A stretch of 64,000 nucleotides of DNA from an uncultured Lachnospiraceae bacterium. Its GTDB lineage: Bacteria > Bacillota > Clostridia > Christensenellales > UBA1242. The stretch's first letter is position 1, and the number at the start of each line of letters is the position of its first letter. The notes under the pieces were generated by a model. It had not been told where the DNA came from and did not search any database. It worked only from the letters and a program-made list of their open reading frames with translations. The stretch is from positions 18,859 to 82,858 of the forward strand of contig CAZSGM010000001.1 in NCBI GenBank assembly GCA_964606505.1. Direction: 5' to 3'. This document shows, piece after piece, positions 34,060 through 55,364 of the stretch. The translations under genes and the position numbers were made by a program.

Positions 34060-34073
34060 GTTAAGTACTTAAC
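34060..34073. promoter_or_regulatory. perfect 14-bp palindrome GTTAAGTACTTAAC (unassigned binding-site candidate), copy a
   Basis: Minus-strand context is AAAAATAGTTAAGTACTTAACCATTTTT. A DnaA box lies 29 bp away. Confidence 0.6.
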
Positions 34074-34346
34074 TATTTTTGCCGCCAAAAAACATACGCG
34101 TATTACACAATTTACCCTATGATACTCTTGCAAAAACATAGTATTTATGCGGGGTGTAGGCATTTAGGCACAATACAAATTCTTATCTGCATCCACTGAT
34201 TGCGTTAACAAGTTTTTGGGGAGTTATCCACATTCTCAATAAAAACAGTCTTTTATACCCCCCTGTGGAAGAGATGTGAATAAATCGTCTACAAGTTTAA
34301 ATTGTAAACATTTTATTGCCTTCAAGTTTAAATATTTTAAAACATT

Positions 34347-34355
34347 TAGTAGTAG
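34347..34355 (+). other. TAGTAGTAG, a candidate DnaA-trio element next to an AT-rich direct repeat
   Basis: Three 5'-TAG-3' triplets 22 nt from the box pair at 34378/34400. Upstream, CAAGTTTAAAT occurs twice (34291-34345). Confidence 0.35.
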
Positions 34356-34516
34356 TGGTGTTTGTTACAAAAAACACTTATCCACAATTGTTTAACATAT
34401 GTGGATAAGTAATTTTAGAAAAATTTGCACCCAAAATTTTTGCCGCCAAAAAGCAGAAAATTCAAGAGAATGTTCCACTTTAAAACTGCAAAATATGAGC
34501 CTAACAAATGTGCATT

Positions 34517-35635
34517 TTAGTTAATTATGCGCACAGGAAGGATGAGGAAAAGATACCCGTCCCCTTCAAATGGCTTAATAATGCACGGAGCGATTGGAGT
34601 TGTAAAATTAAGTGTTATAAACTCGTCGTTTACCACCTTCAAGCACTCGATAAAATAGCGTGAGTTAAACGCCGTTGTCAAATCAACGCCATCCAAAGAA
34701 ATTGTAACATTTTCGTGGATGTTTCCAATTTCACTGTTCGACGAAATAGCCAAAGTTTTGTCCTTAATTTCAAACTTTGCTATGTTGTTTCTTTCGACGC
34801 GCGCAAGCAAACTTGTTCTGTCGAGCGCCTCTTCAAGTTGTTTTTTGTTTACGGTCGTAACCGTAGTAAAATCACCAGACGTAATGAGGTTATTATAATT
34901 AATAAACTCCCCGTCTAGCAAGCGAGAAATGATGACCGCGCCCTCTTGCTCAATCATCACGTATTGCTTTTGGAAAAATACTTTTATGCTCTCGTCTTTG
35001 TCGTCGATAACCTTGGTTATTTCAGACAAACTCTTAGCAGGAACGACAAACTGCGCCTCGCTAGTTGTGTACAAAATTGGCTTTTTAGCTATACTCATCC
35101 TGTACCCATCGAGTGCGACAACATTGACCTTATCGCTAAAAACTTCAAAGAAGCACCCCTTGAATAGTGGCCTTGCGTCGTCAAGCGAAACGGAAAAAAT
35201 CGTCTTGTTAATAGCGTCCACAAAGTCGTCTTTGCTAATCTCAAAGTACTGCTCGTTTGAAATCTTTTGTATATCAGGAAACTCCTCAGCATTCAAGCAT
35301 TGCATATAACCCACACTGTCAGTATATGCAAGCTTCAACTGATTGTTTTCACTAACTTCCAAAACAATTTGCTCGTTTGTAAGTTTTCTAACATACTCAC
35401 TAAAGAACTTACCGGGAACAACAACCGTTCCTTCAAGTTTTACGTCAGCCTTAATCTTTGTCTCAATCATCAACTCAAGATCTGTTGCGCTCAACTTCAA
35501 GCAATCAGCCTCAGCAACCAACTTAATTCCTTCCAAAATCGGATTAGTTGTTCTAGTTGCAGTTGCTTTGATAACCTTCAAAACTGCATCAGCGAGGTCA
35601 AGCCCATCGCATATTACTTTCATTCGGGTATTCAT
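34517..35635 (-). CDS. dnaN: DNA polymerase III beta sliding clamp
   Basis: Start set to ATG (MNTRMKVICDG), 5 nt after AGGAG. Three-domain clamp length (372 aa) with C-terminus LFLILPVRI. Confidence 0.9.
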   Translation of the reverse strand: MNTRMKVICDGLDLADAVLKVIKATATRTTNPILEGIKLVAEADCLKLSATDLELMIETKIKADVKLEGTVVVPGKFFSEYVRKLTNEQIVLEVSENNQLKLAYTDSVGYMQCLNAEEFPDIQKISNEQYFEISKDDFVDAINKTIFSVSLDDARPLFKGCFFEVFSDKVNVVALDGYRMSIAKKPILYTTSEAQFVVPAKSLSEITKVIDDKDESIKVFFQKQYVMIEQEGAVIISRLLDGEFINYNNLITSGDFTTVTTVNKKQLEEALDRTSLLARVERNNIAKFEIKDKTLAISSNSEIGNIHENVTISLDGVDLTTAFNSRYFIECLKVVNDEFITLNFTTPIAPCIIKPFEGDGYLFLILPVRIIN

Positions 35636-35795
35636 AGTTTCTCCTAAAAAATTCAAATCATTTTAGCATACTTTCGTTTTTCTGTAAAGCATTTTTGCCC
35701 AACTTTTCAAAATTTCTTCATTTTTTTTGGCGCTACAGGAGTTGAATTTTTTATTTTTTTTAAATAATAACCTGTATTATTATTGTCTGTGCAAA

Positions 35796-35956
35796 TGTGG
35801 ATAAATTTTGACGTAACCACAATATATTGTGTCATAACTCCTTAAAATCAACCACAGTATACAATATATAGTTTTTCAAAATGTGCATATCTCGGTGGAG
35901 AATTCCACATTTTTTGCACATTTAACTAACATTTTCAATTTTTCGGGTGTGGATAA
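35796..35956. promoter_or_regulatory. two perfect DnaA boxes (oriC part 2, dnaN-proximal)
   Basis: TGTGGATAA at 35796-35804 and 35948-35956. Confidence 0.75.
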
Positions 35957-35988
35957 CCCGATTTTGAACCGCGTTTTTTGGAAAAATA

Positions 35989-36002
35989 GTTAAGTACTTT
36001 AC
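35989..36002. promoter_or_regulatory. 13/14 variant of the palindrome (GTTAAGTACTTTAC), copy b
   Basis: Same 5' flank as copy a (GTTTTTTGG..AAAAATAGTTAAGTACT). A DnaA box lies 33 bp upstream. Confidence 0.5.
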
Positions 36003-36059
36003 GAAATTTGGCGAAAAATATTTTTTTTTGACTTTTTCAAAAAAATCAATTAAATTTGG

Positions 36060-36087
36060 TTGACTTATTTTTGAAAATCGCTATAAT
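36060..36087 (+). promoter_or_regulatory. orphan SigA-like promoter firing into the AT-rich array
   Basis: TTGACT (36060-36065), a 16-nt spacer, TATAAT (36082-36087). No ORF downstream. Confidence 0.4.
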
Positions 36088-36120
36088 ATAAAATTTTATT
36101 ATTTTTAGTTAATTTAGTTT

Positions 36121-36149
36121 TTAGAATTTAAAAAAATTTTAAATTCTAA
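36121..36149. repeat. 13-bp-arm perfect inverted repeat
   Basis: TTAGAATTTAAAA-AAA-TTTTAAATTCTAA. Confidence 0.85.
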
Positions 36150-36239
36150 ATTCGCGGAAGTTCGGCTCTTCAAAATAAACGGAACCTAAAATTGTAGCGT
36201 CTTTTAGTTGAACTCATCGCCAGTTGCGCAAGTTTTTTT

Positions 36240-37115
36240 GTGTGTTATTTAAGTACTAATAATATGTTAAGCTTGTTTATTTAATTGTTACTCATAATTT
36301 AGTAAGTAATTTTATTTTATTTCAGCACTTACTTATAATCATTACTTAAATACTATTAATACAATCTTTACTTAATTATAATATATAATATTGCAAATAA
36401 TAAGTCAAGTAATTTTATATTATTAATTAATAATTATTTATTGTCTAAATTATTTTGGTTATACTAATATAATATTAAGTACTTTTATTAATGTTATACT
36501 TATTTTATTATAAGTACTAACTTAATACACTTACTTATTTTTTTATTCGTACTAATTATAAGGGGTTGCATAATGCAGCGTGCTATCGCTTTTTATACTC
36601 ATACAATATAGTGAGTAATTATACTTATATTTTTTACTTATAATATTATAAGTTAATATTAATTTTTATATTTAAAATAATATGCATATATAGTACTATT
36701 ATATTATTACTAATACTATATTAAGTATTAATATGTTTTGTTTACTTTAATAATAGATATTACTAAAAATATTAAAGTACTTATAAAATGTTAAGTATTT
36801 TATATATTATTTTGTTATTATATAATTATATAACGTATATATATTAATACTTATTATATTATAAAAACTATATTATTTATTATACTCATAATATAATAAG
36901 TACTTAATTATTATACTACTTATAATATTATATAAACTAACATATTACTGTATTTATAATATTATAAGTTTAGATATATAATTATATCTTTACTTAATAT
37001 AAGTACTAAAATAGATAAGTACTTACAATATTATAAGTACTTATTTTATTTAAGTACTAAAATAATATAACGTATTTAAATATATATTTATTCTTATTAT
37101 ATTATTAGTACTAAA
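36240..37115. repeat. AT-rich AGTACT-core iteron array, block 1
   Basis: AGTACT starts at 36252, 36478, 36513, 36692, 36776, 36899, 37002, 37018, 37036, 37053 and 37107, mostly within (A/T)TAAGTACT(A/T)A. Confidence 0.8.
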
Positions 37116-37494
37116 ATAAGACAATGGGCAAACAAAATGCCGACTAAATTTTGCCTGATACAGTTTTATTTGGTTCATATGCTTATTTTGTGTCTACTGC
37201 ACCATACCCATTTGCAACGGCGCACACGATGTCGTGGCAGATTATACCATACTCCATTGCGGTTATGCAATTATTTTCTGCGTTGCAATCAATTGCTGCA
37301 TTGTAACCAATCAACATACTACAACTAATCGGCGTACCGCAACCAATTATGGCAGCACAACTGATAGCCGAACTGACAACTAAACCGACAGATGAACTAA
37401 CAGTGAACCGACAGCTAAGTTACAATCAACTCCATGTTGTTGTTAGCAATCAAACTTAAATTAACTATTATGCGACAATTAACTATTCCGCGAT

Positions 37495-38200
37495 ACTTAA
37501 TTAAAATTTACATGCAACTTATTTTATAAGTAATAATAAGTTATTAGGTACAAATATTATTTAAGTACTTAACATATTATTTGTATTAGCTAATAGTAAT
37601 AGTTAAAAATATTATATGTACTTATTATATATGAGTAAATAAAATATTGTAATACAAATATAATGTGTTAACATAAATTATTTTGAGTATTAAATTAATA
37701 TTAGTACTTAAAATATTATTAAAAATAAAATAATATGTATAAGTCTATTATATTATCATAAAATTATTGGAGTACTAATAATAAAGTAAGTACTATTATT
37801 AAGTATAATAAATATTATTAGTACTAAAAAATTTATGTACTAACAATTTAATAAGTACTAAATTATGTAAATACTGATAAATTAATAAGTACTTAAATTA
37901 TATAAGTAAAAAAATGTAAAACGTACGAATTATACATAAGTACAAAAAATATATAACGTAATAATATTATATGATTACGAATAATATAGAATGAACTAGT
38001 ATAAATAAGTACTAATAACTTAATAAGTACTAAAATATTGTAGTACTAATAATAAAATAAGTACTACAACTAAATAGGTACTAGAAATATATTGATATAA
38101 TAATATATTGTACGTAAAAATGTTGTTCGTACTAGAAATTATAACACTAAAAATAGTTTAAGTACGTATAAATTAAATTAGTAATAAAATTATAAGTGCC
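37495..38200. repeat. AT-rich AGTACT-core iteron array, block 2
   Basis: AGTACT starts at 37564, 37703, 37771, 37789, 37820, 37854, 37888, 38008, 38026, 38042 and 38060. The site at 37560-37573, TTTAAGTACTTAAC, matches the palindrome at 13/14 positions. Confidence 0.8.
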
Positions 38201-38435
38201 AATGTAAAAACAAAAGATGCGTAATTATATAATTTATTTTGAGTAGAAACAACAAGACAAGAACTGCATAAAAATTAATTGCGTACCATATGAAATTAAA
38301 TCACAAATGAAAGTTTAATACTCATCAAATAAATTTTAGACAATTAAGTAAAAAAAATATAGCATCACTAAAAACACACTATTTCAAATACAAAAATAAA
38401 AAGCAAAAAATCCATAATTCATTACAATTCTAGAC

Positions 38436-38464
38436 TTGACTAATTTGTGGATAAGTGGTATAAT
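38436..38464 (+). promoter_or_regulatory. dnaA promoter with a perfect DnaA box in the spacer
   Basis: TTGACT (38436-38441), a 17-nt spacer containing TGTGGATAA (38446-38454), then TATAAT (38459-38464). The dnaA ATG is 7 nt after the -10. Confidence 0.7.
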
Positions 38465-38470
38465 CAAGCT

Positions 38471-39829
38471 ATGGATAATAAGATTTTGAAAGGTTGGGAA
38501 AACGTCCTAACACGAATGGCTACAAACATTTCAGCCGTCAGTTTTGATTTATGGTTAAAACCGCTTGAGGTAATCGACTTAAAAGACAACGCAATCATTC
38601 TATCAGCACCAAGTGTTGTTACAAAAAGTCAAATTTTAAAAAATTTTAAGGAAGAACTTTTGAACGCAATTTCTGCAGAGTTTGAGAATGTTATGGGTTT
38701 TGAGCTGTTTACACCTGAAGAGAAGGAAGAGTACTTAAAATACAATAAACCGTTTGAAGAGGAAATACAGCAATCGACTGCGCCTAACTCGCTCGACAAC
38801 TTCAACCCAAAGTACACGTTTGATAACTTCGTCGTCGGCAAAAGTAACCAGTTTGTTTACACGGCGTGCAGGGCGGTTGCGGAAAACCCCGCAATGCGTT
38901 TTAACCCGCTGTTCATTTACGGGGGCGTTGGACTTGGAAAGACCCACTTGTTGCACGCGATAGGTAATTACATAAAAAACAACCTAAAAGACAAAAAAAT
39001 CGTCTACGTAACTTGTGAAAACTTTATCAACGACTATGTTTATGCGCTCAAATTCAACTCATCAAACGATACAATCATAACAAACTTTAGAGAGAAATAC
39101 CGCAACGTTGACGTTCTAATGGTTGACGACATACAGTTCATTTCTGAGAAAAAAGCGTTGCAAGAGGAATTTTTCCACACATTTAACGACCTTTACCAAA
39201 AAAACAAGCAAATTATCATTAGCTCAGACCGACCACCGCGCGAAATTTCAGCACTTGAGGATAGATTGAAATCGAGGTTTGGAAGCGGACTTATTCAAGA
39301 TATACAAAAACCTGACCTTGAAACCCGAATTGCTATCTTGGAGAAAAAGGCAACAATTGAAAATTACAACATCGAAAAAGACGCGATTAAGTTTATCGCA
39401 GAAAGAGTTGACTCAAACATTCGTGAAATGGAAGGGTTCCTATCAAAAGTTATTTTCTTTAGTTCGCTTCTAGGTAAAGATGTGGCAACAGTTGATGACG
39501 CTCAAGAAGCACTTAAAAATTACATTGAAACAAACAAAGAATCATTAAGCACTGACAGGATTATTCACGTCGTTTGTGATTACTTCAATGTTACAAAAGA
39601 CGACCTAATTGGCAAAAAGAAAACAAAAGAAATTGTAACCGCTCGCCAAATTTGTGTTTATCTCATAACAGAAATGATGGATTTACCATTGACGGCAATT
39701 GGTGAAATTTTCGGCGGAAGAGACCATACAACAATAATTCATTCACGCGATAAAATCGAAGAAATGGTTAGAAATAAGACAAACGTAAATGTTGCGGTTA
39801 ACGACCTTAAAGCAATGCTTGAAAACTAA
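38471..39829 (+). CDS. dnaA: chromosomal replication initiator protein DnaA
   Basis: Walker A GGVGLGKTHLLHAIG, sensor motifs, and C-terminal HTH ..GRDHTTIIHSRDKI. The ATG at 38471 is preferred over the track GTG at 38447, which lies inside the promoter. Confidence 0.92.
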   Translation: MDNKILKGWENVLTRMATNISAVSFDLWLKPLEVIDLKDNAIILSAPSVVTKSQILKNFKEELLNAISAEFENVMGFELFTPEEKEEYLKYNKPFEEEIQQSTAPNSLDNFNPKYTFDNFVVGKSNQFVYTACRAVAENPAMRFNPLFIYGGVGLGKTHLLHAIGNYIKNNLKDKKIVYVTCENFINDYVYALKFNSSNDTIITNFREKYRNVDVLMVDDIQFISEKKALQEEFFHTFNDLYQKNKQIIISSDRPPREISALEDRLKSRFGSGLIQDIQKPDLETRIAILEKKATIENYNIEKDAIKFIAERVDSNIREMEGFLSKVIFFSSLLGKDVATVDDAQEALKNYIETNKESLSTDRIIHVVCDYFNVTKDDLIGKKKTKEIVTARQICVYLITEMMDLPLTAIGEIFGGRDHTTIIHSRDKIEEMVRNKTNVNVAVNDLKAMLEN

Positions 39830-39909
39830 TGTGTAGACAAAATCCAAATTACACAAAAAAATATTACATCACTTAAAAATGGTAAAAATCTTAAAAAAAC
39901 ACTAAAAAG

Positions 39910-39931
39910 CACGTTTTTAACGTGTTTTTTT
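39910..39931 (+). terminator. intrinsic terminator after dnaA
   Basis: CACGTT-TTT-AACGTG followed by T7. Confidence 0.6.
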
Positions 39932-40196
39932 GATGTTTTTACACATATTTTTTGAAAATTACGCAATTTTTAATAGTAAAAAAATAATATGTAGACAATT
40001 TTTTTAAGGTGTTTACCACTAATTTCATTGCCATTATAAGTGCATTTAAATCAATTAAAAAATTCTTGTCGTTTTTTTTTGCTGTATTATTTTTTTTAAT
40101 AAGTATAAATTATCAATTAAAAGAATTAAAAATTATATTCAATATTTTTCATGAAAAATCTAGCTTAATTTCAAAAATAGAATATTCAAAAAAATA

Positions 40197-40225
40197 TTGT
40201 ATTTTTCTATAAAAAATGGTATAAT
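40197..40225 (+). promoter_or_regulatory. extended -10 promoter of mnmE
   Basis: TTGTAT, a 17-nt spacer, TGgTATAAT (40217-40225). The ATG is 7 nt after the -10 and there is no SD. Confidence 0.55.
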
Positions 40226-40231
40226 TTATTC

Positions 40232-41575: not shown

Positions 41576-41696
41576 TTGATAAATATTCTTTTAAAATGCA
41601 AAAGCTGTAAAAATTCAAAAAAAACGATAAAAATCAAAGAAAAAGCATCAAAAAATGCGTTTTTTGATGCTTTTTATCGCAAAAACGGAGGAAAAT

Positions 41697-43574: not shown

Positions 43575-43595
43575 CAATTTTTGCGTTTTTTTTAT
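43561..43595 (+). terminator. intrinsic terminator overlapping the mnmG stop
   Basis: ACGCAAAAA-ATTAGCAA-TTTTTGCGT followed by T8. Confidence 0.7.
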
Positions 43596-43867: not shown

Positions 43868-44171
43868 TTCATGTTAGTGTATAAGTTGCAACTATAAGTT
43901 GTTTTTAAGTATATATTTCAGTTGGCAGGGAGTTCGAAGGCGTCTTTATTTGTAGAAAGAATGGTTTTACGTAAATTGGTATAATTTTATATTTTTTGTA
44001 TATTTTGTCGAAATTTCGCCGCAATTTGGGCGTTATAACCCGTCAAAAGTAGGGGTAAGGTTGCATTTTTTAGGATAAAGTCAAGTATTTGTGTGTCCGA
44101 GGGGTGCTTTGTGAATTTACCCCCACTTTTGTGCATTTTTTAACGCGATTTATCTTAATACACCTAAAATA

Positions 44172-44185
44172 GTTAAGTACTTAAC
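44172..44185. promoter_or_regulatory. perfect palindrome GTTAAGTACTTAAC, copy c
   Basis: Context AAAATAGTTAAGTACTTAACCATATTTTT. Confidence 0.6.
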
Positions 44186-44624: not shown

Positions 44625-45398
44625 ATGGGAAAAATAATTTCGTTCGTAAATCAGAAAGGAGGAGTTGGGAAAACGACAACGTGCGTTAATTTGTCTGCAT
44701 TTATTGCTGCGTCTGGTAAAAAAACGCTGCTCGTCGATATGGACCCTCAAGGGAACGCGTCTAGCGGCTTGGGAGTTGAGAAGGGTGGAAACCTAAAGAC
44801 GGTTTACAGCGTTTTGGATGGCGAGTGCCCAATTCAGGAAGCAATTTCGTCTACAATGATTAAAAACCTTTCAATTTTGCCTGCGACTGTTGATTTGGCA
44901 GGGGCTGAAATCGAGCTGGTTTCGGTTAATAATAGGGAAAAGGTGTTAAAGGAAAGCCTTTCAAATGTTAAAGATGAATATGATTACATTATGATTGACT
45001 GTCCGCCTTCGCTCGGATTGTTGACAATCAACGCACTGTCCGCCTCTGATACGGTTTTAATTCCTATTCAGTGTGAGTTTTATGCGCTCGAGGGATTAAG
45101 TCAGTTGATGAATACTATTAAACTTGTTAAAAAACACTTAAATCCAGAACTTGAGATTGAGGGTGTTATTATGACAATGAAAGATAACCGTTCAAACCTC
45201 GTGCAGCAGGTTTCGGAGCAAATTAGACAATATTTTGGCAAAAAAGTGTTTGAAACCACAATTCCAAGAAATATTAGGCTTGCAGAAGCGCCAAGCCATG
45301 GCGTTCCGGTTTATTTGTACGATAGTAAATGCTCGGGTGCGCTTGCTTACCGTGCTATGGCAGAAGAATTTTTGAAGAAAAACAAAAGGAGAGCGTAA
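44625..45398 (+). CDS. parA: chromosome partitioning ATPase ParA/Soj
   Basis: Deviant Walker A NQKGGVGKTTT. Start at ATG, 6 nt after AAGGAG. Confidence 0.9.
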   Translation: MGKIISFVNQKGGVGKTTTCVNLSAFIAASGKKTLLVDMDPQGNASSGLGVEKGGNLKTVYSVLDGECPIQEAISSTMIKNLSILPATVDLAGAEIELVSVNNREKVLKESLSNVKDEYDYIMIDCPPSLGLLTINALSASDTVLIPIQCEFYALEGLSQLMNTIKLVKKHLNPELEIEGVIMTMKDNRSNLVQQVSEQIRQYFGKKVFETTIPRNIRLAEAPSHGVPVYLYDSKCSGALAYRAMAEEFLKKNKRRA

Positions 45399-46315
45399 TG
45401 ATTAAAAAAGGATTAGGCAAAGGATTGGATGCGTTGTTTTCAGTTTACGACAACGACGACAGCAAACAAGATGAGCAAATTAAAAAATATGAAGCAAAAA
45501 ACAACATAAAAACGGTTGAAAATGGGGTTTTAGAGGTCGAATTAAGCAAAATTCAACCAAATCCTAATCAGCCAAGAAAGAATTTTGATAAAACGGCGCT
45601 TGAAGAGTTGCGCGATTCCATCAAAATCCATGGGGTTATTCAGCCAATTGTTTTGGCAAAACACATTGATGGTGGATACATAATTATTGCGGGCGAACGT
45701 CGTTTTAGGGCGAGCCAAATGGCGGGGCTTAAGTGCATTCCTGCAATAGTTAAAGACTACACAGAAAGGCAAATTAAAGAGATTGCGCTTATTGAAAACC
45801 TGCAAAGAGAGGATCTTAACCCGATTGAAACGGCAAGGGCGCTCAAAGAGGTTATGCTTGAGTACAATATGACGCAAGATGAACTTGCAGATAGAATAGG
45901 AAAGAGTCGCTCTGCAATTGCAAATACATTGAGATTGTTGTCTTTAAGTAGTGAAGTTCTCAAACTTGTCGAGATGGGCAAATTATCCGCTGGGCACGCG
46001 CGTACGTTGGTTGTTGTAACAGATAGTACAATGCAATATTCGCTTGCGCTTAAAGCTAGTGAGGACAAGATGTCTGTGCGCGACCTTGAAAAAGCCGTTA
46101 AAGATGCTTTAAATCCACCCGTAAAAAAGCGCAAACTTGAACGCGTGCAATCGTTGGAACTTAAAGAACTTGTAAGCGATATGCAAAAAGTATTCTCTAC
46201 AAAGGTTTCAGTGCTTGGAAGCGACAATAAAGGGCGCATTTACATTGATTATTTCAATCGCGACGACTTAAATAGAATTTGCGACTTGATAGATTACCTT
46301 AAAAACAGGTTATAA
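45398..46315 (+). CDS. parB: chromosome partitioning protein ParB/Spo0J
   Basis: GLGKGLDAL, IQPNPNQPRK, GERRFRA. The start overlaps the parA stop (TAATG). Confidence 0.9.
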   Translation: MIKKGLGKGLDALFSVYDNDDSKQDEQIKKYEAKNNIKTVENGVLEVELSKIQPNPNQPRKNFDKTALEELRDSIKIHGVIQPIVLAKHIDGGYIIIAGERRFRASQMAGLKCIPAIVKDYTERQIKEIALIENLQREDLNPIETARALKEVMLEYNMTQDELADRIGKSRSAIANTLRLLSLSSEVLKLVEMGKLSAGHARTLVVVTDSTMQYSLALKASEDKMSVRDLEKAVKDALNPPVKKRKLERVQSLELKELVSDMQKVFSTKVSVLGSDNKGRIYIDYFNRDDLNRICDLIDYLKNRL

Positions 46316-46365
46316 TATGCTCAATACCATTAATATGTATTCAATGTGTACTTATTTAAAGTTTA

Positions 46366-46395
46366 AAGATTGACAAATGTCAATCTTTTTTATTT
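46366..46395 (+). terminator. intrinsic terminator after parB
   Basis: AAGATTGAC-AAAT-GTCAATCTT followed by a T run. Confidence 0.75.
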
Positions 46396-46969
46396 TCGCC
46401 CCGTATTTATCATATAATACGCCTATGTGGGCGCAAATATATAAATACGGAAGCATTTAAAAAGCTTTTAAGTGAAATTATTTTAATAAGCAAAGAAATT
46501 TCAGTATGAGAACTAAATTCAATATAAATAAAACGCTGATTCTCATCAAAAAATAGCGTTTTATTTGTTGTTTTTTTTAAAAACTCACATTGTTATGCGA
46601 TACACCGTCAATTTGATTAATATCCTAACTTAAATGTATTATTGCTTAAATGGGACACCTAAGCAATAATAACCTATAAAAATAATAATTTAATTGATAT
46701 TTAAGGCAATGTCTGCCGGATTTGGATTGAATTCTAGTAAATACAACAAGAATGGCAACCGTGTTTGTTGAGCTGTTGTTTTAATGGGGGTAAAGCTACA
46801 TAGTGATAAACTTGTTAATATGTGTTGTGGACAACGACATTTCCTATAGTGCATTAACCACGTAGAGGCAAGATAATTAAATAAATAAAACATGTAGCAG
46901 TGGTGGCAATCAAGTAGATATTGCAGCAATTATGTGCTATAGTTAAGTAATTGCGCAGAGTTAATAGTT

Positions 46970-46985
46970 TGTTTCACGTGAAACA
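46970..46985. promoter_or_regulatory. parS site 1 (perfect consensus)
   Basis: TGTTTCACGTGAAACA. Confidence 0.9.
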
Positions 46986-47559
46986 ATGTTGATTGCGGTT
47001 GTAGGCGTTGGGTGTTTTCATATTAGAATAGGACAAACAGGTAGGGCTTGGCATTTTGTAAGGTGTTTTTATTGCGCAGTGTACACTGAGTGAAACATAT
47101 GTTTAATTAGAATAAGTATGCTTAATAGGACAATTACGCTATGTATACTATGAGTTCAAATAAAATAAATAGATTATACATAATAACATACACGTAGCAT
47201 GCGGCATATAGTGTATAGCACGCAATATAATACATAATGAATAATAGACAATACAAATAGAATATATAATATTTAATGTATAATATGTAATTTATAATAC
47301 ACATTATACAACATAGAGGATATAAAATGTAAAAATGCTACGCAGTAATGGCTGAATGCTATAACGTATATGGTATTGCTATGCTTACATTGTATTTTGC
47401 AAGTTATAAAACAATTGTTGTAATATGTAATATATAGCATATAGAACACACTATATTAAATAATCCGCTTTATATTATTACTACTGTTGTGTTTAATGGG
47501 TGAACACTGCTGATAATTGATTTTGCAATTGACTACATATTGTGCAGTTTTCGTGAGGA

Positions 47560-47575
47560 TGTTTCACGTGAAACA
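47560..47575. promoter_or_regulatory. parS site 2 (perfect consensus)
   Basis: TGTTTCACGTGAAACA. Confidence 0.9.
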
Positions 47576-48081
47576 AAAGAAATAAGAATGGATGTGTCTT
47601 TGGCAAAAAGTGTGCATTTATGCAGGTTTTATAGGTGTTTATGCTGCACTTATTCTGCATTTAAGATAAATACAATTGAAGTTTTGTAAAATAAACGCAT
47701 AGGCTAAGATAGTTTATATTAAAACAAATATATAAAATAAATAATGAAGCATTAATCATAAAAAATGTTTAATGTTAGTATCTAAACAGTTTGTCTTGCT
47801 GCGAGGTTTAAGTATTATATATTCTTTTATTGTTTGCGTGCTTTAATTGAATGCGTGCTCAACATAAATGATTAACCCGAGCATAAAAATGAATGCAATT
47901 TCAGTGGTATGTAAGTATATAAAGCGTTCGAGTGTTTAAGTAAAGAAAAAAGACGTTGCAAAATAGTCGCATAATGAGGTTTAAATGTGTTCCGCGATTA
48001 GTGTTTTTAATTACGAGTTGTATTACAGGTTGATTTGCCAAAATCGCATAAAATCTACCTTTTTGCGTCTTTTTTTAACCT

Positions 48082-48097
48082 TGTTTCACGTGAAACA
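48082..48097. promoter_or_regulatory. parS site 3 (perfect consensus)
   Basis: TGTTTCACGTGAAACA. Confidence 0.9.
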
Positions 48098-48949
48098 GTT
48101 GTTATTTGGGGTGTTATTTGAGAAAAAGTAGGACGATTTGACGTATATTTTTTTACTGTGGCTGTGGGTTCACTGCCCTATTTATATTGCGTCAAAACTT
48201 ACGTAAAAAATGTTGATAAGGTGTTCAAATTGTGCTTATCAACGGCGAAATAATTAATAAGCAGTAAATCGAATAAAAAATGACCTTAACAGGCTTTAAT
48301 ACATCAAGTGATGTTTGATTTTGTTGAAAGTTGCCAATTTGCAAACTATTTTTCTTGAAATATAGAAGTAATTTGCGATATTATCCCCCGCTATTCTTCA
48401 AAATAACCCCTAAAGTGGCAAAAATCAAGTTTTTAACAATTTAATCTAATTATATGACATATTTTGTTTTATTTGGCGGTAAGTTAGTATTTATTTCTGC
48501 TTTATATGGGGAATTATTCGCGTTATTTATTCATAATGGTGTTAATTTTATCTTATTTTGGGCTAATTTGCTTATTTTGAGTTTATTTTTTAAAAAAAAT
48601 AAACAATTACGCCATAATTTTATGCAAATAATCATATAAAACGAAAATTTAATAATTATTATAATTTTTAAATATATTTTTTATTATTTTATTATTTTTT
48701 TTGCATTTTAGTTAAAAAAAATGACATTTTTGATGTGGATTTGTTTATATTAAGTCTCAAAAATCGCAAATTATGGTAAAATTGGATATAATTAGCATTA
48801 TATTGCTTGAATAAACGGCTTTTGCATTTTTTATAATGCCCTTAGTCATGTGAATTGTGTTTCTATGCTTTATTGAGACGCATATTTTTGTGTTTTTGCA
48901 CTGGAATTTTGGCAAATTGCGCCTTTTTATTGTTAAAAAATAATAGTAG

Positions 48950-49013
48950 TTATCCACAATTATATGCACAATTTGGGTGGTTTCAGGATTATTAGTGGGC
49001 AAAGTTATCCACA
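48950..49013. promoter_or_regulatory. two perfect DnaA boxes, same orientation
   Basis: TTATCCACA at 48950-48958 and 49005-49013. Confidence 0.65.
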
Positions 49014-49377
49014 TTGAATTAATGAAAATGTGCATAAGTTTGAAATATGTTAATTACTTTTTAATAAATTTAGGTTTATTAATATGCGGAAATGGGTACA
49101 AAAAGTGCAGTGAAATGCTGCAAATGCTAGAATTTAATGATTTTTGTCCTATTTCAATATACTTATTGTTAATATTTGAAATATTTAATAAAAATGGCGT
49201 ATTTACTGACGTCTTTAATTGTTGAATTTTTCTATTTTTTATTATTTTTGGCAAATTATTGTATTAATTTATCATTAGATATGTGGAAAAATGGCTTTGA
49301 TTATGGCTTTTGTGTATGTATAAAGTTTTAGCTTTATTAATTTATCAACCATATGTTGACAAAATGGGCAAAAAATA

Positions 49378-49415
49378 GTTAAGTACTTAACCAAAAAAAT
49401 AGTTAAGTACTTAAC
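49378..49415. promoter_or_regulatory. tandem pair of perfect palindromes GTTAAGTACTTAAC, copies d1 and d2
   Basis: Located at 49378-49391 and 49402-49415, centres 24 bp apart. Context AAAAAATAGTTAAGTACTTAACCAAAAAAATAGTTAAGTACTTAACT. Confidence 0.65.
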
Positions 49416-49805
49416 TAAAATTGAGCGTAAAAATTCGCTGAGGGATGAAAATGTTGTCAACATAAGTTTTGGATGTGTTGATGTATTTGTAGGTTTAACA
49501 TTGTAACTGCGTTTTTGAGTACAATGTTGTAATTGCGTTAATCCGTGTCTAGATTGAGGCGATTGTTACTTAGATTTCAACAATTTACTCGCGTATTGTT
49601 GCAGTTAGGTGGTAGTTTATTCGTGTATTTAGCTCGATTATTTTGGTTTGGGGTTGGGTTACTTTACTCTTTGGTTTGGGTACACATTTTTTGCTATATT
49701 ATTACTGGACAGGATAATTTTGTTATAGTTTTAAACTAGATTGTGATGGTTTGGGGCTGCATAAGCGAGGCGCGGGCTCGATTGCGACAAGTAACATATA
49801 ATTAC

Positions 49806-49834
49806 TTGACATTTTTCAGAAAAACGCGTATAAT
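49806..49834 (+). promoter_or_regulatory. consensus SigA promoter of greA
   Basis: TTGACA, a 17-nt spacer, TATAAT. Confidence 0.75.
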
Positions 49835-50023
49835 ATATACGCAAAATATGGGCAGAGTTGCTTTTTGTGAGCACTTTTAATGGTAGTTGGTCAGTAGCAA
49901 ATCATTTTTTGTAATGAATGCGTATGTTTACGCGTTTCTTTGTAGCGGCGCAAATTTGAGGCGTTGGGTGGTTTGTGATTGAGTTTTGACTGGTGAGAGT
50001 TCCACAGCGGCGATGTTCGCGCA

Positions 50024-50049
50024 AGTGCCAGAACGGCACTTTTGTTTTA
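50024..50049 (+). terminator. terminator-like hairpin inside the greA 5' leader
   Basis: AGTGCC-AGAAC-GGCACT followed by TTTGTTTTA, ending 5 nt before the GGAGG SD. Confidence 0.5.
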
Positions 50050-50066
50050 TTATGGAGGTTATTTAA

Positions 50067-50534
50067 ATGGAAAGTTATTTAACGAGAGAGGGATTTGAGG
50101 CGCTGCAAAGCAGGTTAAACTATCTCAAAACTGATAGACGTAACGAGGTTGCTAAAAAATTGCAGGCAGCTAGAGAAATGGGCGACTTGAGCGAAAATGC
50201 TGAGTATGACTCGGCAAAAGATGAGCAAACTGTCATTGAAACCGAGATTGCTGAAATTGAGCACAAATTGCGTACTTCTAAGATTATTGACGAAGAAGAA
50301 ATTGATACATCTAAAGTTTCAATTGGCTGTACTGTTAAAATTTTGGATATGGAATTCAAGGAAGAATTGGAATACAAAATTGTTGGCTCGTCTGAAAGCG
50401 ACCCTAAAAACAAGTTGATTAGCAACGAATCCCCAGTGGGTTCCTCGCTACTTGGGAAAAGTGAGGGCGACGTTGTAGAAGTTCGCGCACCGTCGGGTAT
50501 GTTGAAATTTAAGATTATTTCAATCACAAGATAG
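50067..50534 (+). CDS. greA: transcription elongation factor GreA
   Basis: 155 aa. GDLSENAEYDSAKDEQ coiled-coil tip and C-terminal globular domain. Confidence 0.92.
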   Translation: MESYLTREGFEALQSRLNYLKTDRRNEVAKKLQAAREMGDLSENAEYDSAKDEQTVIETEIAEIEHKLRTSKIIDEEEIDTSKVSIGCTVKILDMEFKEELEYKIVGSSESDPKNKLISNESPVGSSLLGKSEGDVVEVRAPSGMLKFKIISITR

Positions 50535-50614
50535 GTTTGCTTGCAAACAACGTTTGTACGAGTTTTATAGTGTTAAATAGATAATAATGGTGGCGCATTT
50601 GCCGTGTTAGTATG

Positions 50615-50649
50615 TAGACAAATTCAAAAATGGATTTGTCTATTTTTTT
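50615..50649 (+). terminator. intrinsic terminator downstream of greA
   Basis: TAGACAAAT, a 10-nt loop, ATTTGTCTA, followed by T7. Confidence 0.65.
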
Positions 50650-50838
50650 GAAATGGGCTTGTCAAACTTTCTATAATGGTGCAAAATGCAAATGTGGCTT
50701 TCGGTAAAAAACAATAATAAAACAAAATAGATTTTAAATAACAATAATATATTTTAAGTAAAAATAAAATTTGATAGGCAGAGATTTTATGTCTAAAAAA
50801 TGGCAGTATTAGTTTTTTATGTGCAAAATAATGGCGTG

Positions 50839-50956
50839 AAAAAATATATTTTTTAAGGGCGAAAATTTAGTTTGAAAAAATATATTTTAACTATAAATAT
50901 TGTGCGACGAAAATATTTTTCAGTGTATAAATATCGTGCAAGGAAAATGTATTTTT
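50839..50956. repeat. A/T-tract palindromes and a ~33-bp direct repeat
   Basis: AAAAAATATATTTTTT (50839-50854). TATAAATATTGTGCGACGAAAATATTTTT (50891-50920) versus TATAAATATCGTGCAAGGAAAATGTATTTTT (50924-50956). Confidence 0.7.
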
Positions 50957-52007
50957 ATACAATAAAATTGTCAATGAAAATAGCGCAATAGGAATACAGA
51001 AATTGAGAAAAATAATAAGCAAAACGAGTAAAAAAAAGAGTAAAAAACATGCAAAAAATTTTAAGTGAAAAAATAGGTAAAATACAAGTAAAAAATTAAG
51101 TAAAATAATAAACGGAAAAAATGCAAAAAATATGTGTTTAAATTTAATTTTTTGCGTAAAATTATGGCGTAACTATATATAAAAAATTGAGTGTTCAATA
51201 ATTAAAAATGGCAAGAGAAAATACGGATAAATACAAATAAAAATCTGGAATATTTTTAATAAATAAAATTGGGATGAAATTTATTTTTTTAGTCTGCGAA
51301 AAATAGTTTTACAGTGGTTTATGTTGTATATATTTTAGTATTTTATTGAATAAATAAAACTATTTTATAAATCCATAAAAATGCAGTATAGCTGCAAAAT
51401 TATGCAGCTTACCTGTTAAAATTTGCGTGAAAGCTGTTAAAAATTGCGGGTATGCTGCATTTTACGTGCAAATAATTGTGTAAAATATAAATTTGATATA
51501 TATTTTAATTGTAAATTATATTTTTTTATAATATTTTTTAATTAAATAATAAATATTTTCGTTATATTTTTTTGACGTTGTAAAATTATATTTTTTTGCA
51601 GGTAAATTTATTAATTAATTTGTGATTAAAATAAAATGAATTAATGCGCAATTTTATTTGATTTTATCGGTTTATATTTTAGTGTTATTTTAGGTGTAAT
51701 TTTCAGTATTTTTTATTTTGCGGGGGGAATTGTGATTTTATTTATTTTTGACAGCGTTTATTCTTAATAAAAAGTGTTATTTCTTCGCCGCTTTAATTAT
51801 TTTTTTAGCGATGATTTTTCGCGGAAATTTTAATAAAAAAAATAAGGAATATTTTGTGTTAATAAAAAATAAAAAATCAATATTCATATGCATATTTATA
51901 TTTTGTTTATTTTTCAAATTTAATTATTTAAGGACGCAGAAATTTACTGCGTCCTTAAAAGTTGAAATGATAATTTTTTTTGCGAGTGCATTCAACTTGC
52001 GTGCACG

Positions 52008-52125
52008 GCAAACTAGCCCACTATTGTAAGTAGCGCACACAACAGATTAGTGTACACAGCAAACTAGCGCGCCGTGTTAAATGACGACCGCGACAAACTA
52101 GCGCGCGTAACTAACTAGCGCGCGG
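52008..52125. repeat. four dispersed copies of AACTAGC(G/C)C(G/A)C; the last contains the stop codon of the 427-aa ORF
   Basis: CAAACTAGCCCAC, CAAACTAGCGCGCC, CAAACTAGCGCGCG, CTAACTAGCGCGCGG. Confidence 0.7.
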
Positions 52126-53398
52126 CGTTAATTGTGCGTGCGGCAATAATGAGTAGCGCAACTAGAGAATGTAGTTCCTTGCTGAGTCGCGATTTTTCGT
52201 AAATTGAGCACAGCAACGCCATAAGTTTCGACAGCATCCTACTGCGACTTACAAAATACAAAAGCGGACGTTCAATAACTTTGACCTCGTCTAGGTATTC
52301 GCTAAGCCCAAAATCGTCCTTAAAATACTGGTTCAAGTCCTGCACTAAGTCGTTCAAAATTGCCGTCTCGTATTCATTCAGCCCCTTGTAAGAAACTTGC
52401 GGCGTTGGCTCAATAAGTGGTTGTACTTCGTCGGCACCGTGCCTCCCAAAACTCCCACTTTGCGCGCCAAAACTGTTTTCTTGCGCAAAATCACGTTCGG
52501 CGTGTGTCCCATAACCTTGAGACCCACCTGTGTGCCATCCTCTAAGGTCGTCGTTTCTCGCATTGCCTTGAAACTCATTCATTTCCCAAAACTCCTGTTC
52601 GTGTTGTGCCTCTTGGTTGCGTTGTGCCCCCTGTTTGCTGAGTATGTCTTGTTCGCGCTGTGTGCCTTGTTTAATGTCGTCTTTAATTGCGGGGCTGCGC
52701 TGTGAAGCGTCTTCTGCGCTTGCGTGCGAACTGTTGCTGTTTGGGGCGCTCAAATTGTTGCGGGTTTGAGCGTGCGGGTTTGCGTTGTCAACTACGCTGT
52801 CCGCGTTCGTAATAAATTTGTCGGGGTTACCTGTTGCGTCGGCCGTACTGCCAAAAAGTTTGCTAAAAAAACGCGAGCTACCTGTTGCGCTTGGAGTAGT
52901 GCCAGTGCGCAAATTATTTTGAGTGTGCGAGTTGTTAAATGCAGTGGGCGCACAACCGTCCTCGGGTGCGGACGCGCTTTGAGTTGGCTCAACCCCTTTG
53001 TTTTTGCCGAAAATTTGCGGGACAGGCGTTTTTTTAGTTGTGCTATTTGTTTGCAGGGTCGTGTTTTGTAAATCGTCGTCCTGTCGGGCGTTTCCCGCTT
53101 TTGTGTGCCAGTCGGTTGCCGCATTCTCGCGTTTTTCATTAGTGAGTTTGCCGTTAATTGGTTTGTTATTGGTGCACTCGCCATTAGCGTGGTCGCCGTT
53201 ATTGCCGCCGCCGCTAACCCTCGCGCTGTTTGTGTGCTCGCCATTAATCAGCTCGTCGTTAGTGTGCCCACAGTTAATTTGTCCGCGGTCAGCCCCCTCG
53301 CCGCTCGTGCAATCATTGCGTGCCTCAACGTACGCCTGCGCAAGCATTTCATACTCGCTTTTGTTGTAACCGTCAATTCTGTCGTCGTATTTTTCCAT
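52115..53398 (-). CDS. hypothetical low-complexity protein (N/G/H/T/Q-rich) with a short ordered C-terminal domain
   Basis: 427 aa with internal (I/A)NG.(H/C)TN repeats. Only the last ~90 aa look globular. Higher GC than its surroundings, and many overlapping alternative-frame ORFs. Confidence 0.5.
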   Translation of the reverse strand: MEKYDDRIDGYNKSEYEMLAQAYVEARNDCTSGEGADRGQINCGHTNDELINGEHTNSARVSGGGNNGDHANGECTNNKPINGKLTNEKRENAATDWHTKAGNARQDDDLQNTTLQTNSTTKKTPVPQIFGKNKGVEPTQSASAPEDGCAPTAFNNSHTQNNLRTGTTPSATGSSRFFSKLFGSTADATGNPDKFITNADSVVDNANPHAQTRNNLSAPNSNSSHASAEDASQRSPAIKDDIKQGTQREQDILSKQGAQRNQEAQHEQEFWEMNEFQGNARNDDLRGWHTGGSQGYGTHAERDFAQENSFGAQSGSFGRHGADEVQPLIEPTPQVSYKGLNEYETAILNDLVQDLNQYFKDDFGLSEYLDEVKVIERPLLYFVSRSRMLSKLMALLCSIYEKSRLSKELHSLVALLIIAARTINAAR

Positions 53399-53653
53399 AT
53401 TTTACCTCTTACAAAAATATATTTTAAAGGGGTTGTAATTATGCAAAAATTTAATTTTATGAATATTTTGCAAAGCGAAAGCATAATATGATATAGCCAC
53501 TAAGCACACAAAAACTCCAACATTTTACGATTTAATGCGGCGCTTTTATTTAAAATGCGTGTTTGAAAAGCCAGTAAAAACGTCATTTTTGCCCTAAAAA
53601 CCGCTGTTTTGAGAAAAAAAATTACTAAAAGTGTATTTTTTTGCTAAAAACTG

Positions 53654-53682
53654 TTGACAAATTTTTTATTATATAGTAAAAT
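53654..53682 (+). promoter_or_regulatory. SigA promoter of the tRNA operon
   Basis: TTGACA, a 17-nt spacer, TAAAAT. Confidence 0.7.
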
Positions 53683-53702
53683 AGTGGAGTCGTTAAGAAT
53701 AT

Positions 53703-53779
53703 CGCGGGGTAGAGCAGTTTGGCAGCTCGTCGGGCTCATAACCCGAAGGTCGTTGGTTCAAATCCAGCCCCCGCTACCA
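53703..53779 (+). tRNA. initiator tRNA-fMet (CAU)
   Basis: CGCGGGG acceptor with a 1-72 mismatch and three G-C pairs closing the anticodon stem (TCGGGCTCATAACCCGA). CCA encoded. Confidence 0.9.
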
Positions 53780-53789
53780 TTTTTTTTAT

Positions 53790-53866
53790 GGCGGTGTAGC
53801 TTAGCTGGTTATAGCGTCCGGTTCATACCCGGAAGATCAAAGGTTCGAATCCTTTCACCGCTACCA
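53790..53866 (+). tRNA. elongator tRNA-Met (CAU)
   Basis: GGCGGTGTAGCTTAGCTGG... with anticodon loop TTCATAC. Closely resembles Bacillus elongator tRNA-Met as recalled. CCA encoded. Confidence 0.8.
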
Positions 53867-53888
53867 GCGTGGGCGCATTGCCCAAGTT

Positions 53889-53963
53889 GGCCCTATGGTC
53901 AAGCGGTTAAGACACCACCCTTTCACGGTGGTATCGTGGGTTCGAATCCCGCTAGGGTCACCA
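53889..53963 (+). tRNA. tRNA-Glu (UUC)
   Basis: GGCCCTATGGTCAAGCGGTTAAGACACCACCCTTTCACGGTGG... Cloverleaf checked by hand. CCA encoded. Confidence 0.88.
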
Positions 53964-53967
53964 AATT

Positions 53968-53999
53968 CTCACTTTCTAAATAGAAAGTGAGTTTTTTTT
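53968..53999 (+). terminator. intrinsic terminator of the tRNA operon
   Basis: CTCACTTTC-TAAATA-GAAAGTGAG followed by T8. Confidence 0.85.
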
Positions 54000-54324
54000 A
54001 TATTTTAAGTTCTTGCGCTGCTTGGTTTATACCGCAGGTTGATATATTACTTGGCTTATATTATGGGTTGATGTGCTTGCAGTTTTATCTTCAAGCTGTT
54101 GCGCTAGTTGTATAACTGGAAATATTGGCAGCGAACAAACAAAGGAATTCAATTCTAAAGTGCTGCGCCTGCCTTGCTAGCTGCCTTTGTGGTTTGGGAA
54201 TTATGGTTGCGGCTAGTTTTACAAATTCGTTCCGCTTTGCGGTTTTGCAGGCAGGCAAAATGCTTGACTTTCGCGGCAATGTGGAGTAAAATGGAAATGG
54301 TTAAATGACCAAATGGAGTTAATA

Positions 54325-55146
54325 ATGGATATTACCGATTTAACTTGGAACCCTTGGCACGGCTGCCATAAGTGTAGCGAGGGCTGCCAAAATTGTTATG
54401 CGTATTTTTTAGACAAAAGGTACGGCAGAGATACTAATCAGGTTTGTAGGAATAAGTCAAACTTTGATTACCCAATAAAAAAGGACAAGAGCGGGAACTA
54501 TAAGTTGCCGAGTGGGTCGTTTGTCCGCGTGTGTATGACAAGCGACTTCTTTCTCGAAGAGGCCGACGACTGGCGCGGCGAGGCGTGGGATATAATTCGC
54601 AAAAGGTCAGACGTTACCTTTTCATTGCTTACTAAAAGGGCAAACAGAATTAAGGATAATTTGCCAGACGATTGGGGCGACGGCTGGGACAATGTCCAGT
54701 TTGCGGTTTCTGCAGAAAACCAAAAGCGAGTGGACGAAAGAATTCCGTACCTTTTGGACGTTCCTGCCAAGCATAGGTGGATAAGTGTAAAACCCTTTAT
54801 TGGCGAAGTTGATTTGGAGCAATACCTTTCAACCGGCGGAATAGAAGCTGTCCTTGCAGGCGGGGAAAACTATATGGGTTGTCGTCCGCTCCACTTTGAA
54901 TGGGTAAAAAAGTTGCACGACCAATGTGAAAAATATGATGTCCAATTAATTTTTGGGCAAACGGGAAACGTTTTTGTTAAAGATGGGGTTGAATACAAAA
55001 TTAGAAACAGAACCGACCAAATGATACAGGCGGTTAAGTCGGGGCTCAATTATCCGCACTTGGATATTGATAAACGCGTTAACGAGATTTTAGAAATTAG
55101 GGAAAAAATGAAAAACGCTAGGATGAAAAAGACTGATTGTGATTAA
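54325..55146 (+). CDS. DUF5131 (phage Gp37/Gp68 family) protein
   Basis: TWNPWHGCHKCSEGCQNCYA N-terminal Cys cluster is typical of the family. Start at ATG, 6 nt after GGAG. Confidence 0.75.
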   Translation: MDITDLTWNPWHGCHKCSEGCQNCYAYFLDKRYGRDTNQVCRNKSNFDYPIKKDKSGNYKLPSGSFVRVCMTSDFFLEEADDWRGEAWDIIRKRSDVTFSLLTKRANRIKDNLPDDWGDGWDNVQFAVSAENQKRVDERIPYLLDVPAKHRWISVKPFIGEVDLEQYLSTGGIEAVLAGGENYMGCRPLHFEWVKKLHDQCEKYDVQLIFGQTGNVFVKDGVEYKIRNRTDQMIQAVKSGLNYPHLDIDKRVNEILEIREKMKNARMKKTDCD

Positions 55147-55350
55147 AATATTAGAGTACATTACAACTAACAATAAAAAATGCGAAATTAACGGCTGCGA
55201 GATATACGAAAAAAGTATGTAAGCAGTCTTTTTTAATGGAAAAATAAAAAAAATAACATTTTTTTTATAAACAAGCAAAAAATATTTGGAATAAAATAAT
55301 AAATGTGTTAAAATTGCATAAAATACACACAGTAAGGAGTGATAAAAATG

Positions 55351-55364
55351 GTTAAGTACTTAAC
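55351..55364. promoter_or_regulatory. perfect palindrome GTTAAGTACTTAAC, copy e
   Basis: Lies 6 nt upstream of the G12 tract, with imperfect DnaA boxes 29-39 bp downstream. Confidence 0.6.

Follow-up and report, generated by a model that had tools for sequence, protein, structure and literature searches.

The origin region and its palindromic sites

The stretch of DNA analyzed here (the window, 64 kb of contig CAZSGM010000001.1 from assembly GCA_964606505.1) belongs to a lineage of uncultured gut Clostridia and comprises the chromosomal origin, across which a 14-bp palindrome, GTTAAGTACTTAAC, recurs between genes. The GC skew changes sign at ~36-38 kb. On the minus strand the genes follow the order jag, yidC, yidD, rnpA, (rpmH) and dnaN; next comes a 2.8-kb spacer of 20% GC, past which dnaA, mnmE, mnmG, parA and parB lie on the plus strand, followed by 3.7 kb without genes (46316-50066, downstream of parB, with ATATAAT-like AT-rich runs) and by greA. 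About 55% of the DNA between 32.8 and 55.6 kb is non-coding, and the 16 perfect DnaA boxes of the window are located mainly in the origin region. Spo0A, ScpA and ScpB are encoded in the window as well. The features that matter for the analysis are given below (L202 is a related genome described further on).

34060..34073: exact palindrome in the rpmH-dnaN intergenic region, within a conserved island (34015-34079)
34517..35635, minus strand: dnaN, divergent from dnaA across the array
35989..36002: 13/14 copy, GTTAAGTACTTTAC, upstream of dnaN and ~60 bp upstream of a conserved promoter, within a conserved block (35736-36148)
36060..36087, plus strand: sigma-70-type promoter TTGACT-16-TATAAT, pointing into the array toward dnaA; conserved in L202 (4369-4396)
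36250..37112: left array block, AT-rich degenerate repeats with a 17/34-bp period and the core (T)AAGTACT(T/A)A
37120-37450: GC-richer spacer between the array blocks
37527..38168: right array block
37560..37573: 13/14 copy inside the right block of the dnaN-dnaA array
38471..39829, plus strand: dnaA
44172..44185: exact palindrome 447 bp upstream of parA, within a conserved island (44025-44185); the most widely conserved site
44625..46315, plus strand: parA (soj)-parB operon (Pfam ParA/ParB)
46970-46985, 47560-47575 and 48082-48097: three perfect canonical parS sites, TGTTTCACGTGAAACA, ~520-590 bp apart, downstream of parB
49378..49415: tandem exact pair (starts 49378 and 49402, centers 24 bp apart), within a conserved island (49288-49431)
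55351..55364: exact palindrome, flanked by a DUF5131 gene and a 593-amino-acid open reading frame (ORF); the relatives offer no orthologous region for comparison

In the window, GTTAAGTACTTAAC has five exact matches and two with one mismatch, where 0.04 are expected by chance, and none of 100 shuffles gave seven matches. All seven copies are non-coding on the gene map and together span 21 kb across the GC-skew switch. Within the ~80 kb examined from this genome (the window plus flanks of 9.2 and 7.4 kb), the sites range from ~4 kb before the dnaN-dnaA array to 17 kb past it; the added flanks hold no further palindrome sites. The first-pass annotation of this DNA, made from the sequence alone, had located exact copies (34060, 44172, 49378, 49402, 55351) and two 13/14 ones (35989, 37560), and had described them as intergenic, concentrated in the origin region and too frequent for chance, all of which is borne out. 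Its headline count of six copies has to be replaced by five exact plus two near-exact ones, and the extended consensus, which it considered asymmetric, is near-symmetric, aaATAGTTAAGTACTTAACTATtt, with an 18-bp core TAGTTAAGTACTTAACTA. The palindrome is flanked by A/T-tracts, while the other flanking sequence differs from copy to copy. The sites thus present a perfect 14-bp dyad with A/T-rich flanks, within the range of ~14-20 bp that suits a winged-helix dimer.

Three of the sites lie at a similar distance from a DnaA box. Perfect boxes (TGTGGATAA) are found 40 bp from the 34060 copy (34023-34031) and 44 bp from the 35989 copy (35948-35956), and a one-mismatch box is found 40 bp from the 55351 copy, giving offsets of -40, -44 and +40 bp; both perfect boxes are conserved in L202. 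Since ~13% of the non-coding positions of the region are equally near a box, three such sites correspond to a binomial p of ~0.016. At the other sites, boxes with no more than one mismatch are farther off: the closest lies 98-146 bp from the copies at 44172 and 49378/49402 and 884 bp from the in-array copy. The suggestion in the first-pass annotation of an origin-linked regulator acting with DnaA gains some ground from the two loci with a conserved 40-44 bp spacing.

Folding of individual sites is weak (-2 to -8.7 kcal/mol), and for the 35989 copy no fold is obtained; the tandem pair can form a hairpin of -24 kcal/mol with a T run behind it on the minus strand. A role of the palindromes as terminators was rejected on these energies, the strong hairpin of the pair resulting incidentally from the repeat. 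Twelve consecutive G residues (55371-55382) start 7 bp past the 55351 palindrome, upstream of the 593-amino-acid ORF, which has no Pfam match, and could form a tract for slipped-strand phase variation.

The dnaN-dnaA array

The two array blocks between dnaN and dnaA form a regular series of short repeats with a period of ~17.3 bp, an arrangement of the centromere- or iteron-like type. Pairwise distances peak at 17, 34-35, 51-53, 69-70 and 86-88 bp, and the periods given by Tandem Repeats Finder are 17, 34 and 51. The hexamer AGTACT is present 22 times in 36200-38250 (out of 38 window-wide) versus 1.3 times in first-order Markov simulations of the same DNA, and TAAGTACTTA with up to two mismatches matches the array 35 times versus 9.7 ± 3.2 expected. 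Elsewhere in the window AGTACT occurs 10 times in ~60 kb, where ~19 are expected from composition. The core of the array repeat equals the central 8-10 bp of the palindrome, in agreement with the earlier remark that the palindrome core matches the AAGTACT sites filling the array.

The partition genes and parS

The three canonical parS sites downstream of parB have counterparts in relatives, where three, four and seven copies occupy the same place. The idea that the palindrome itself is the parS site was abandoned once these three copies of TGTTTCACGTGAAACA had been found; compared with the parS consensus TGTTNCACGTGAAACA, it has only the outer GTT/AAC in common and differs at the inner 10 of 16 positions. 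The palindromes surround the partition locus. In three species the first parS is preceded at 2.0-2.8 kb by a single site and the last one followed at 1.3-1.6 kb by a tandem pair, so that parAB and parS are bracketed; in the window, ~1.3 kb separate the last parS from the pair and ~650 bp the pair from greA, which follows it. Such bracketing admits an architectural or roadblock reading. The gene-less stretch past parB also contains two perfect DnaA boxes, at 48950 and 49005.

The distance between the single site and the parA start varies by species (447, 214, 247 and 108 bp), and the proximal parA promoter is conserved separately from the palindrome. For these reasons a simple promoter-occluding operator at parA is unlikely. 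A hidden small regulator gene upstream of parA was sought by tblastx, which revealed no conserved peptide there.

A second conserved element, TTTACCCCCACTTTT, occurs near the parA-upstream palindrome at 44045-44059 (minus strand) and 44116-44130 (plus strand). In two species (the window, and L202 at 12044/12115) its copies are paired in inverted orientation, ~71 bp from each other, and it is also found at 4310 in L207. The more distant L208, which lacks the palindrome, has a copy upstream of parA as well, at 383; here, at 200-260, inverted Spo0A-box-like heptamers (TTCGACA ... TGTCGAA) precede parA.

Conservation in relatives

Among the species representatives, a set that excludes the window's own species, the best DnaA matches are 53-59% identical and their loci lack the motif. 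Closer relatives were reached via MnmG and DnaN homologues and the contigs that carry them. L202 (contig CAKVOD010000001.1; MnmG 88% identical; same species as L205) has the gene order of the window and carries the motif at each orthologous place, with same-core arrays at the same location (3480-3620 and 4860-5360). L242 (MnmG 87%) has an AGTACT array upstream of dnaA (215-1160) and three parS sites. The sites in these relatives are the following.

L202, 1639: copy in the rpmH-dnaN spacer, one mismatch, among DnaA boxes
L202, 4289: copy upstream of dnaN; the 22-bp flank TTAAGTACTTTACGAAATTTGG is identical in the window and L202/L205
L202, 5348: in-array copy
L202, 12172: exact copy, 214 bp upstream of parA
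L202, 15722/15746: pair upstream of greA, 24-bp spacing
L242, 6804: GTTAAGCACTTAAC, 247 bp upstream of parA
L242, 10923/10947: pair before greA, 24-bp spacing
L243, 1866: GTTAAGCACTTAAC, among DnaA boxes between dnaN and rpmH

When the window is compared with L202, the palindromes stand out as short conserved islands within diverged intergenic spacers. The sites are non-random, selected and syntenic, and they are distinct from parS. No fewer than two further species of the genus share their positions, a minimum because L242 and L243 possibly represent one species.

Outside this group only the site upstream of parA is retained. The outgroup L207 (GCA_949283525.1; DnaN 83%) has a single exact copy at 4185, 108 bp upstream of parA, together with co-directional dnaA-dnaN and no array; the perfect 18-mer is likewise present in two related representative genomes only at the parA-upstream place, and the more distant L208 (69% DnaN identity) and L001-L006 have no motif copies. 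Because the outgroup keeps this copy alone and the distant relatives none, the parA-upstream site is the oldest, and the other sites and the array arose in the genus that inverted dnaN. Conservation in relatives, which the first-pass annotation had left to be checked, is thus found as the same syntenic sites in L202/L205, L242 and L243 and as the parA site alone in L207.

The gene arrangement itself also differs between these genomes. Relatives at 83-86% DnaN identity (L207 at 7776-10947, and L209) have co-directional dnaA-dnaN-rpmH and no array. The dnaN gene of the window is inverted, and inversion and array occur together. The origin spacers of L202 (1930-2230, 3780-4030, 4440-4800 and 5400-5620) additionally contain GC-rich REP-like repeats in both orientations, e.g., CAGCAGCGGGCTATCCCGCC, that are not present in the window.

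Association with MarR-family genes

The 18-bp form TAGTTAAGTACTTAACTA was scanned over ~186,000 representative genomes, yielding 28 loci from many phyla. A scan of the species representatives with the bare 14-mer gave, among the matches listed, mostly single chance matches, and these later served as background set. At many 18-mer loci the palindrome is located immediately upstream of homologous genes encoding proteins of 145-165 amino acids with Pfam MarR/MarR_2 domains, which match solved structures of MarR proteins such as MepR, ST1710, AdcR, FabT and SlyA; in an NCBIfam scan none of them reached an equivalog cut-off. A hidden Markov model (HMM) built from the adjacent ORFs detected 15 MarR-like ORFs over 139 exact-14-mer loci (1.04 Mb), and all 15 lie at most 340 bp from the palindrome.

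The same family emerges without prior selection. When every ORF within 300 bp of the motif was clustered at 173 loci, MarR formed the largest cluster (16 loci, from Paenibacillus, Pedobacter, Arthrobacter, Mesorhizobium, Clostridium and other genera) and was the only recurrent regulator family. The next cluster, UppS (seven loci), consists of genes in which the 14-mer merely encodes V-K-Y-L-T. Mutually the adjacent MarR proteins are ~20-35% identical, and they have the recognition-helix signature [VI][ST]K[PAS][AN][IV][ST]Q in common. In orthologous operons of marR and a GH3 gene (L214, L238, L240), one site upstream of marR and two sites downstream, 51 bp apart, keep their positions despite sequence drift of the sites. 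In addition, symmetrized half-site profiles match between the 18 genus sites and the 41 MarR-adjacent ones: both show T and A directly outside the 14-mer, A-rich outer flanks and tolerance of C at the central T. The sequence that recurs at the origin is, in many genomes, a MarR-associated operator.

A 22-bp perfect form, AATAGTTAAGTACTTAACTATT, is found in an AT-rich (25% GC) Clostridiales lineage (L227, L244, L248, L259, L268, L271), where it coincides exactly with the stop of a conserved 391-amino-acid gene and precedes a gene for a 387-amino-acid membrane protein; no marR gene is found near these loci.

Palindrome arrays in other genomes

Regular multiplication of the palindrome is seen in other genomes too. 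In the Ruminococcaceae genome RUG14020, a marR gene for a 152-amino-acid protein (L233, 5317-5775) is flanked by six and seven palindromes with a period of ~44 bp, and a further contig of this genome carries six more.

L233, 4991-6161: palindrome arrays on both sides of marR
L099 (RUG14020, another contig), 426-670: six palindromes

Close homologues of this MarR protein are found on contigs of ~720 bp, as expected if such arrays break assemblies. Two metagenome contigs end in palindrome arrays with a 39-41-bp period (L265 at 2941-3187 and L274 at 1824-2119). Judging from the arrays in RUG14020 and the two metagenome contigs, multiplication of this operator into arrays is a recurring event; no paper describing them was found in the literature. 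They resemble the origin region of the window in the palindrome itself, the AAAATA flank, the central T/C variant and the regular multiplication. However, they consist of full 14-bp sites with a 39-44-bp period, in L233 around the regulator gene, whereas the array of the window consists of 8-10-bp cores with a 17-bp period between dnaN and dnaA.

A proposed MarR-family operator at the origin

We propose that GTTAAGTACTTAAC is the operator of a homodimeric winged-helix regulator of the MarR family that is encoded outside the window, a reading to which we assign a probability of roughly 0.55. The first-pass annotation had offered a dimeric helix-turn-helix protein as one possible binder, and the conserved islands, together with the MarR genes adjacent to the palindrome elsewhere, suggest that the copies are indeed selected binding sites of this kind. 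Known MarR operators (MepR, OhrR, SlyA, ST1710) are pseudo-palindromes of 16-20 bp bound by a dimeric winged helix, and usually autoregulatory. The 14-18-bp dyad with its A/T-rich flanks is similar, in 16 unrelated genomes the very same sequence immediately precedes marR and target genes or lies between them, and the site positions are conserved in orthologous marR operons. Unlike in those systems, no marR is located beside any site in the ~80 kb examined here, and the targets are DnaA-box clusters at oriC, parAB and greA instead of genes for efflux or detoxification. The spacing to the parA promoter also varies, and ~35 core sites are arrayed at the origin.

Several observations weigh against this assignment. 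Searches with tblastn and the HMM detected no MarR-like ORF in the window, in its ~17 kb of flanks or in the loci of the relatives L202, L207 and L242, so that the binder at this origin is named solely from the association seen in other genomes. In a metagenome scan, a marR gene was adjacent in only 1 of 36 loci, and many single matches are chance, coding coincidences or regulon sites. The varying distance to parA counts on the same side. The array, finally, has units that retain no more than the central 8-10 bp and repeat every 17 bp, unlike the full-length arrays with a 41-44-bp period beside marR; its tie to the same protein is weaker for this reason.

Under the MarR proposal, the conserved target in the lineage would be the region upstream of parAB, and from this ancestral site the regulator appears to have been recruited, in one genus, to the origin region as a whole. 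There, the sites would have multiplied beside the DnaA-box clusters on both sides of dnaN, as the tandem pair beyond the parS cluster and upstream of greA, and as ~35 weaker core sites (AAGTACT, 17-bp period) across the 2.8-kb dnaN-dnaA spacer. A dimer would occupy the isolated strong sites and, if abundant or ligand-free, might also coat the array cooperatively. Such coating could alter the accessibility of DnaA boxes and transcription, including that from the conserved promoter directed into the array, as well as the expression of parAB, dnaN and greA, and replication and segregation might thus be coupled to the signal sensed by the regulator. Equally well, the array may be an origin-linked reservoir for the protein. 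A bolder version, which we regard as rather less likely, is that a MarR-family protein has been co-opted in one genus of gut Clostridia as an architectural factor of origin and centromere, acting by array-coating, in register with DnaA boxes, and by bracketing parAB-parS (e.g., as a boundary to ParB sliding or as a gate to origin firing).

Two types of known systems offer a frame for such a role. Accessory proteins that act with DnaA bind several bacterial origins, such as Spo0A at its boxes in the Bacillus oriC, CtrA in Caulobacter, and SeqA, IciA and Rob in E. coli, and datA exemplifies titration loci. As in those cases, specific sites are interleaved with DnaA boxes and many of them are concentrated at the origin; the family would here be MarR, and the array is far larger than known clusters of accessory sites. 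Plasmid centromere and iteron arrays include parC of R1, tubC and sopC. The two blocks of short regular repeats around a central spacer, near partition genes, are reminiscent of them, but the present array is chromosomal, its repeat core is a palindrome that equals the operator of a transcription factor, and no dedicated adaptor gene is adjacent.

If the proposal is correct, a family of small-molecule sensors would be newly linked to oriC in the control of replication initiation and segregation, which would constitute, for Firmicutes, a new coupling of these processes to a signal from the environment or metabolism. The case would in addition illustrate how the operator of an ordinary transcription factor can be amplified into an array residing at the origin. 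We found no paper with TTAAGTACTTAA in a relevant context and none on a MarR protein at a chromosomal oriC. The motif is sharp and both a candidate family and a recognition-helix signature are defined, which makes the model directly testable, with L207, having the parA site and no array, as a natural control among the relatives. The analysis also defines an operator for a widespread, uncharacterized subgroup of MarR proteins.

Alternative explanations

Another dimeric protein may bind the palindrome, not as a MarR-type transcription factor but as an organizer of the origin domain or as a roadblock confining ParB sliding, e.g., a TetR-type protein like SlmA or RefZ, an XRE-type repressor or a RacA-like anchor. 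SlmA binds GTGAGTACTCAC, a site with an AGTACT center, and RefZ and RacA use origin-proximal palindromes, sites that the present one may resemble. An organizer would suit the bracketing of parAB and the parS cluster in three species, the lack of a fixed distance to parA and the confinement of all sites in ~80 kb to the interval from ~4 kb before to 17 kb past the array, and with Spo0A, ScpA and ScpB encoded in the window a developmental handling of the chromosome is plausible. Yet among regulators MarR alone recurs beside the motif in the 173 loci, where no TetR, XRE or MerR family does so, and no such gene is conserved beside the sites in the window or its relatives. We consider this explanation possible but rather doubtful.

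The first-pass annotation had favored a paralogue of ParB or Noc, for which the palindrome would be a second centromere-like or nucleoid-occlusion site. The 16-bp length and the dyad symmetry indeed fit, the outer GTT...AAC is that of parS, the location is beside parAB and oriC, and rsmG-noc, usual between mnmG and parA, is lacking there. On the other hand, the only ParB of the window has its own three canonical parS sites, from which the palindrome departs at its inner positions. The extra ParB/Noc gene that the annotation had suggested searching for was not found as a second ParB-family ORF in the window or in the related loci, nor does a ParB-like gene recur beside the motif in the 173 loci. 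This reading is therefore highly improbable.

A comparably slim chance is left to AGTACT as the target of a DNA methyltransferase, with sequestration dependent on hemimethylation as for SeqA and GATC. The hexamer is strongly clustered at the origin and mildly under-represented elsewhere, as such a role might predict, but conservation spans 14-18 bp and thus exceeds the hexamer, functional variants alter the hexamer itself (GTTAAGCACTTAAC, GTTAAGTATT and others) and the window contains no methyltransferase gene.

Least credible is structural or selfish DNA (intrinsic terminators, hairpins or the ends of a miniature inverted-repeat transposable element, MITE), to which the A/T-tracts and the tandem-pair hairpin could point: besides the weak folding of single sites, the stem sequence itself is kept across loci and phyla, which terminators do not need, the 18-mer is not found in viral contigs, and the copies have no common flanks and are syntenic in three to four genomes, contrary to the MITE with conserved flanks that the first-pass annotation had envisaged.

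Further features of the origin region

Approximately 30 nt past the promoter at 36060, a strong one, an AT-rich inverted repeat, TTTAGAATTTAAAA-AAA-TTTTAAATTCTAAA (36120-36150), is conserved; in the L202 counterpart (4369-4445) its arms have changed and are still complementary. The dnaA promoter (38436-38473, TTGACT-17-TATAAT) contains a DnaA box within its spacer and ends 6 nt before the ATG at 38471, for which reasons dnaA looks leaderless and autoregulated. The layout in L202 is alike (TTGACT-17-TATACT-6-ATG).

In the rpmH-dnaN spacer, TAGTAGTAG (34347-34355) adjoins a pair of DnaA boxes (34378/34400) and an AT-rich stretch (34280-34345). These elements look like DnaA-trios with an unwinding element, and the true unwinding site may therefore be in this spacer and not in the array.

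The same species has been assembled independently from short reads (L197, L198, L200), and every one of these assemblies is interrupted at window positions 40067 and 53748, the latter within the first of two tandem tRNA-Met genes, and dnaN contigs of relatives likewise end at the array. Further upstream, two copies of another palindrome, TTTTGTACAAAA, 22 bp apart (20616-20627 and 20638-20649), are located ~100 bp upstream of spo0A (20747-21505).

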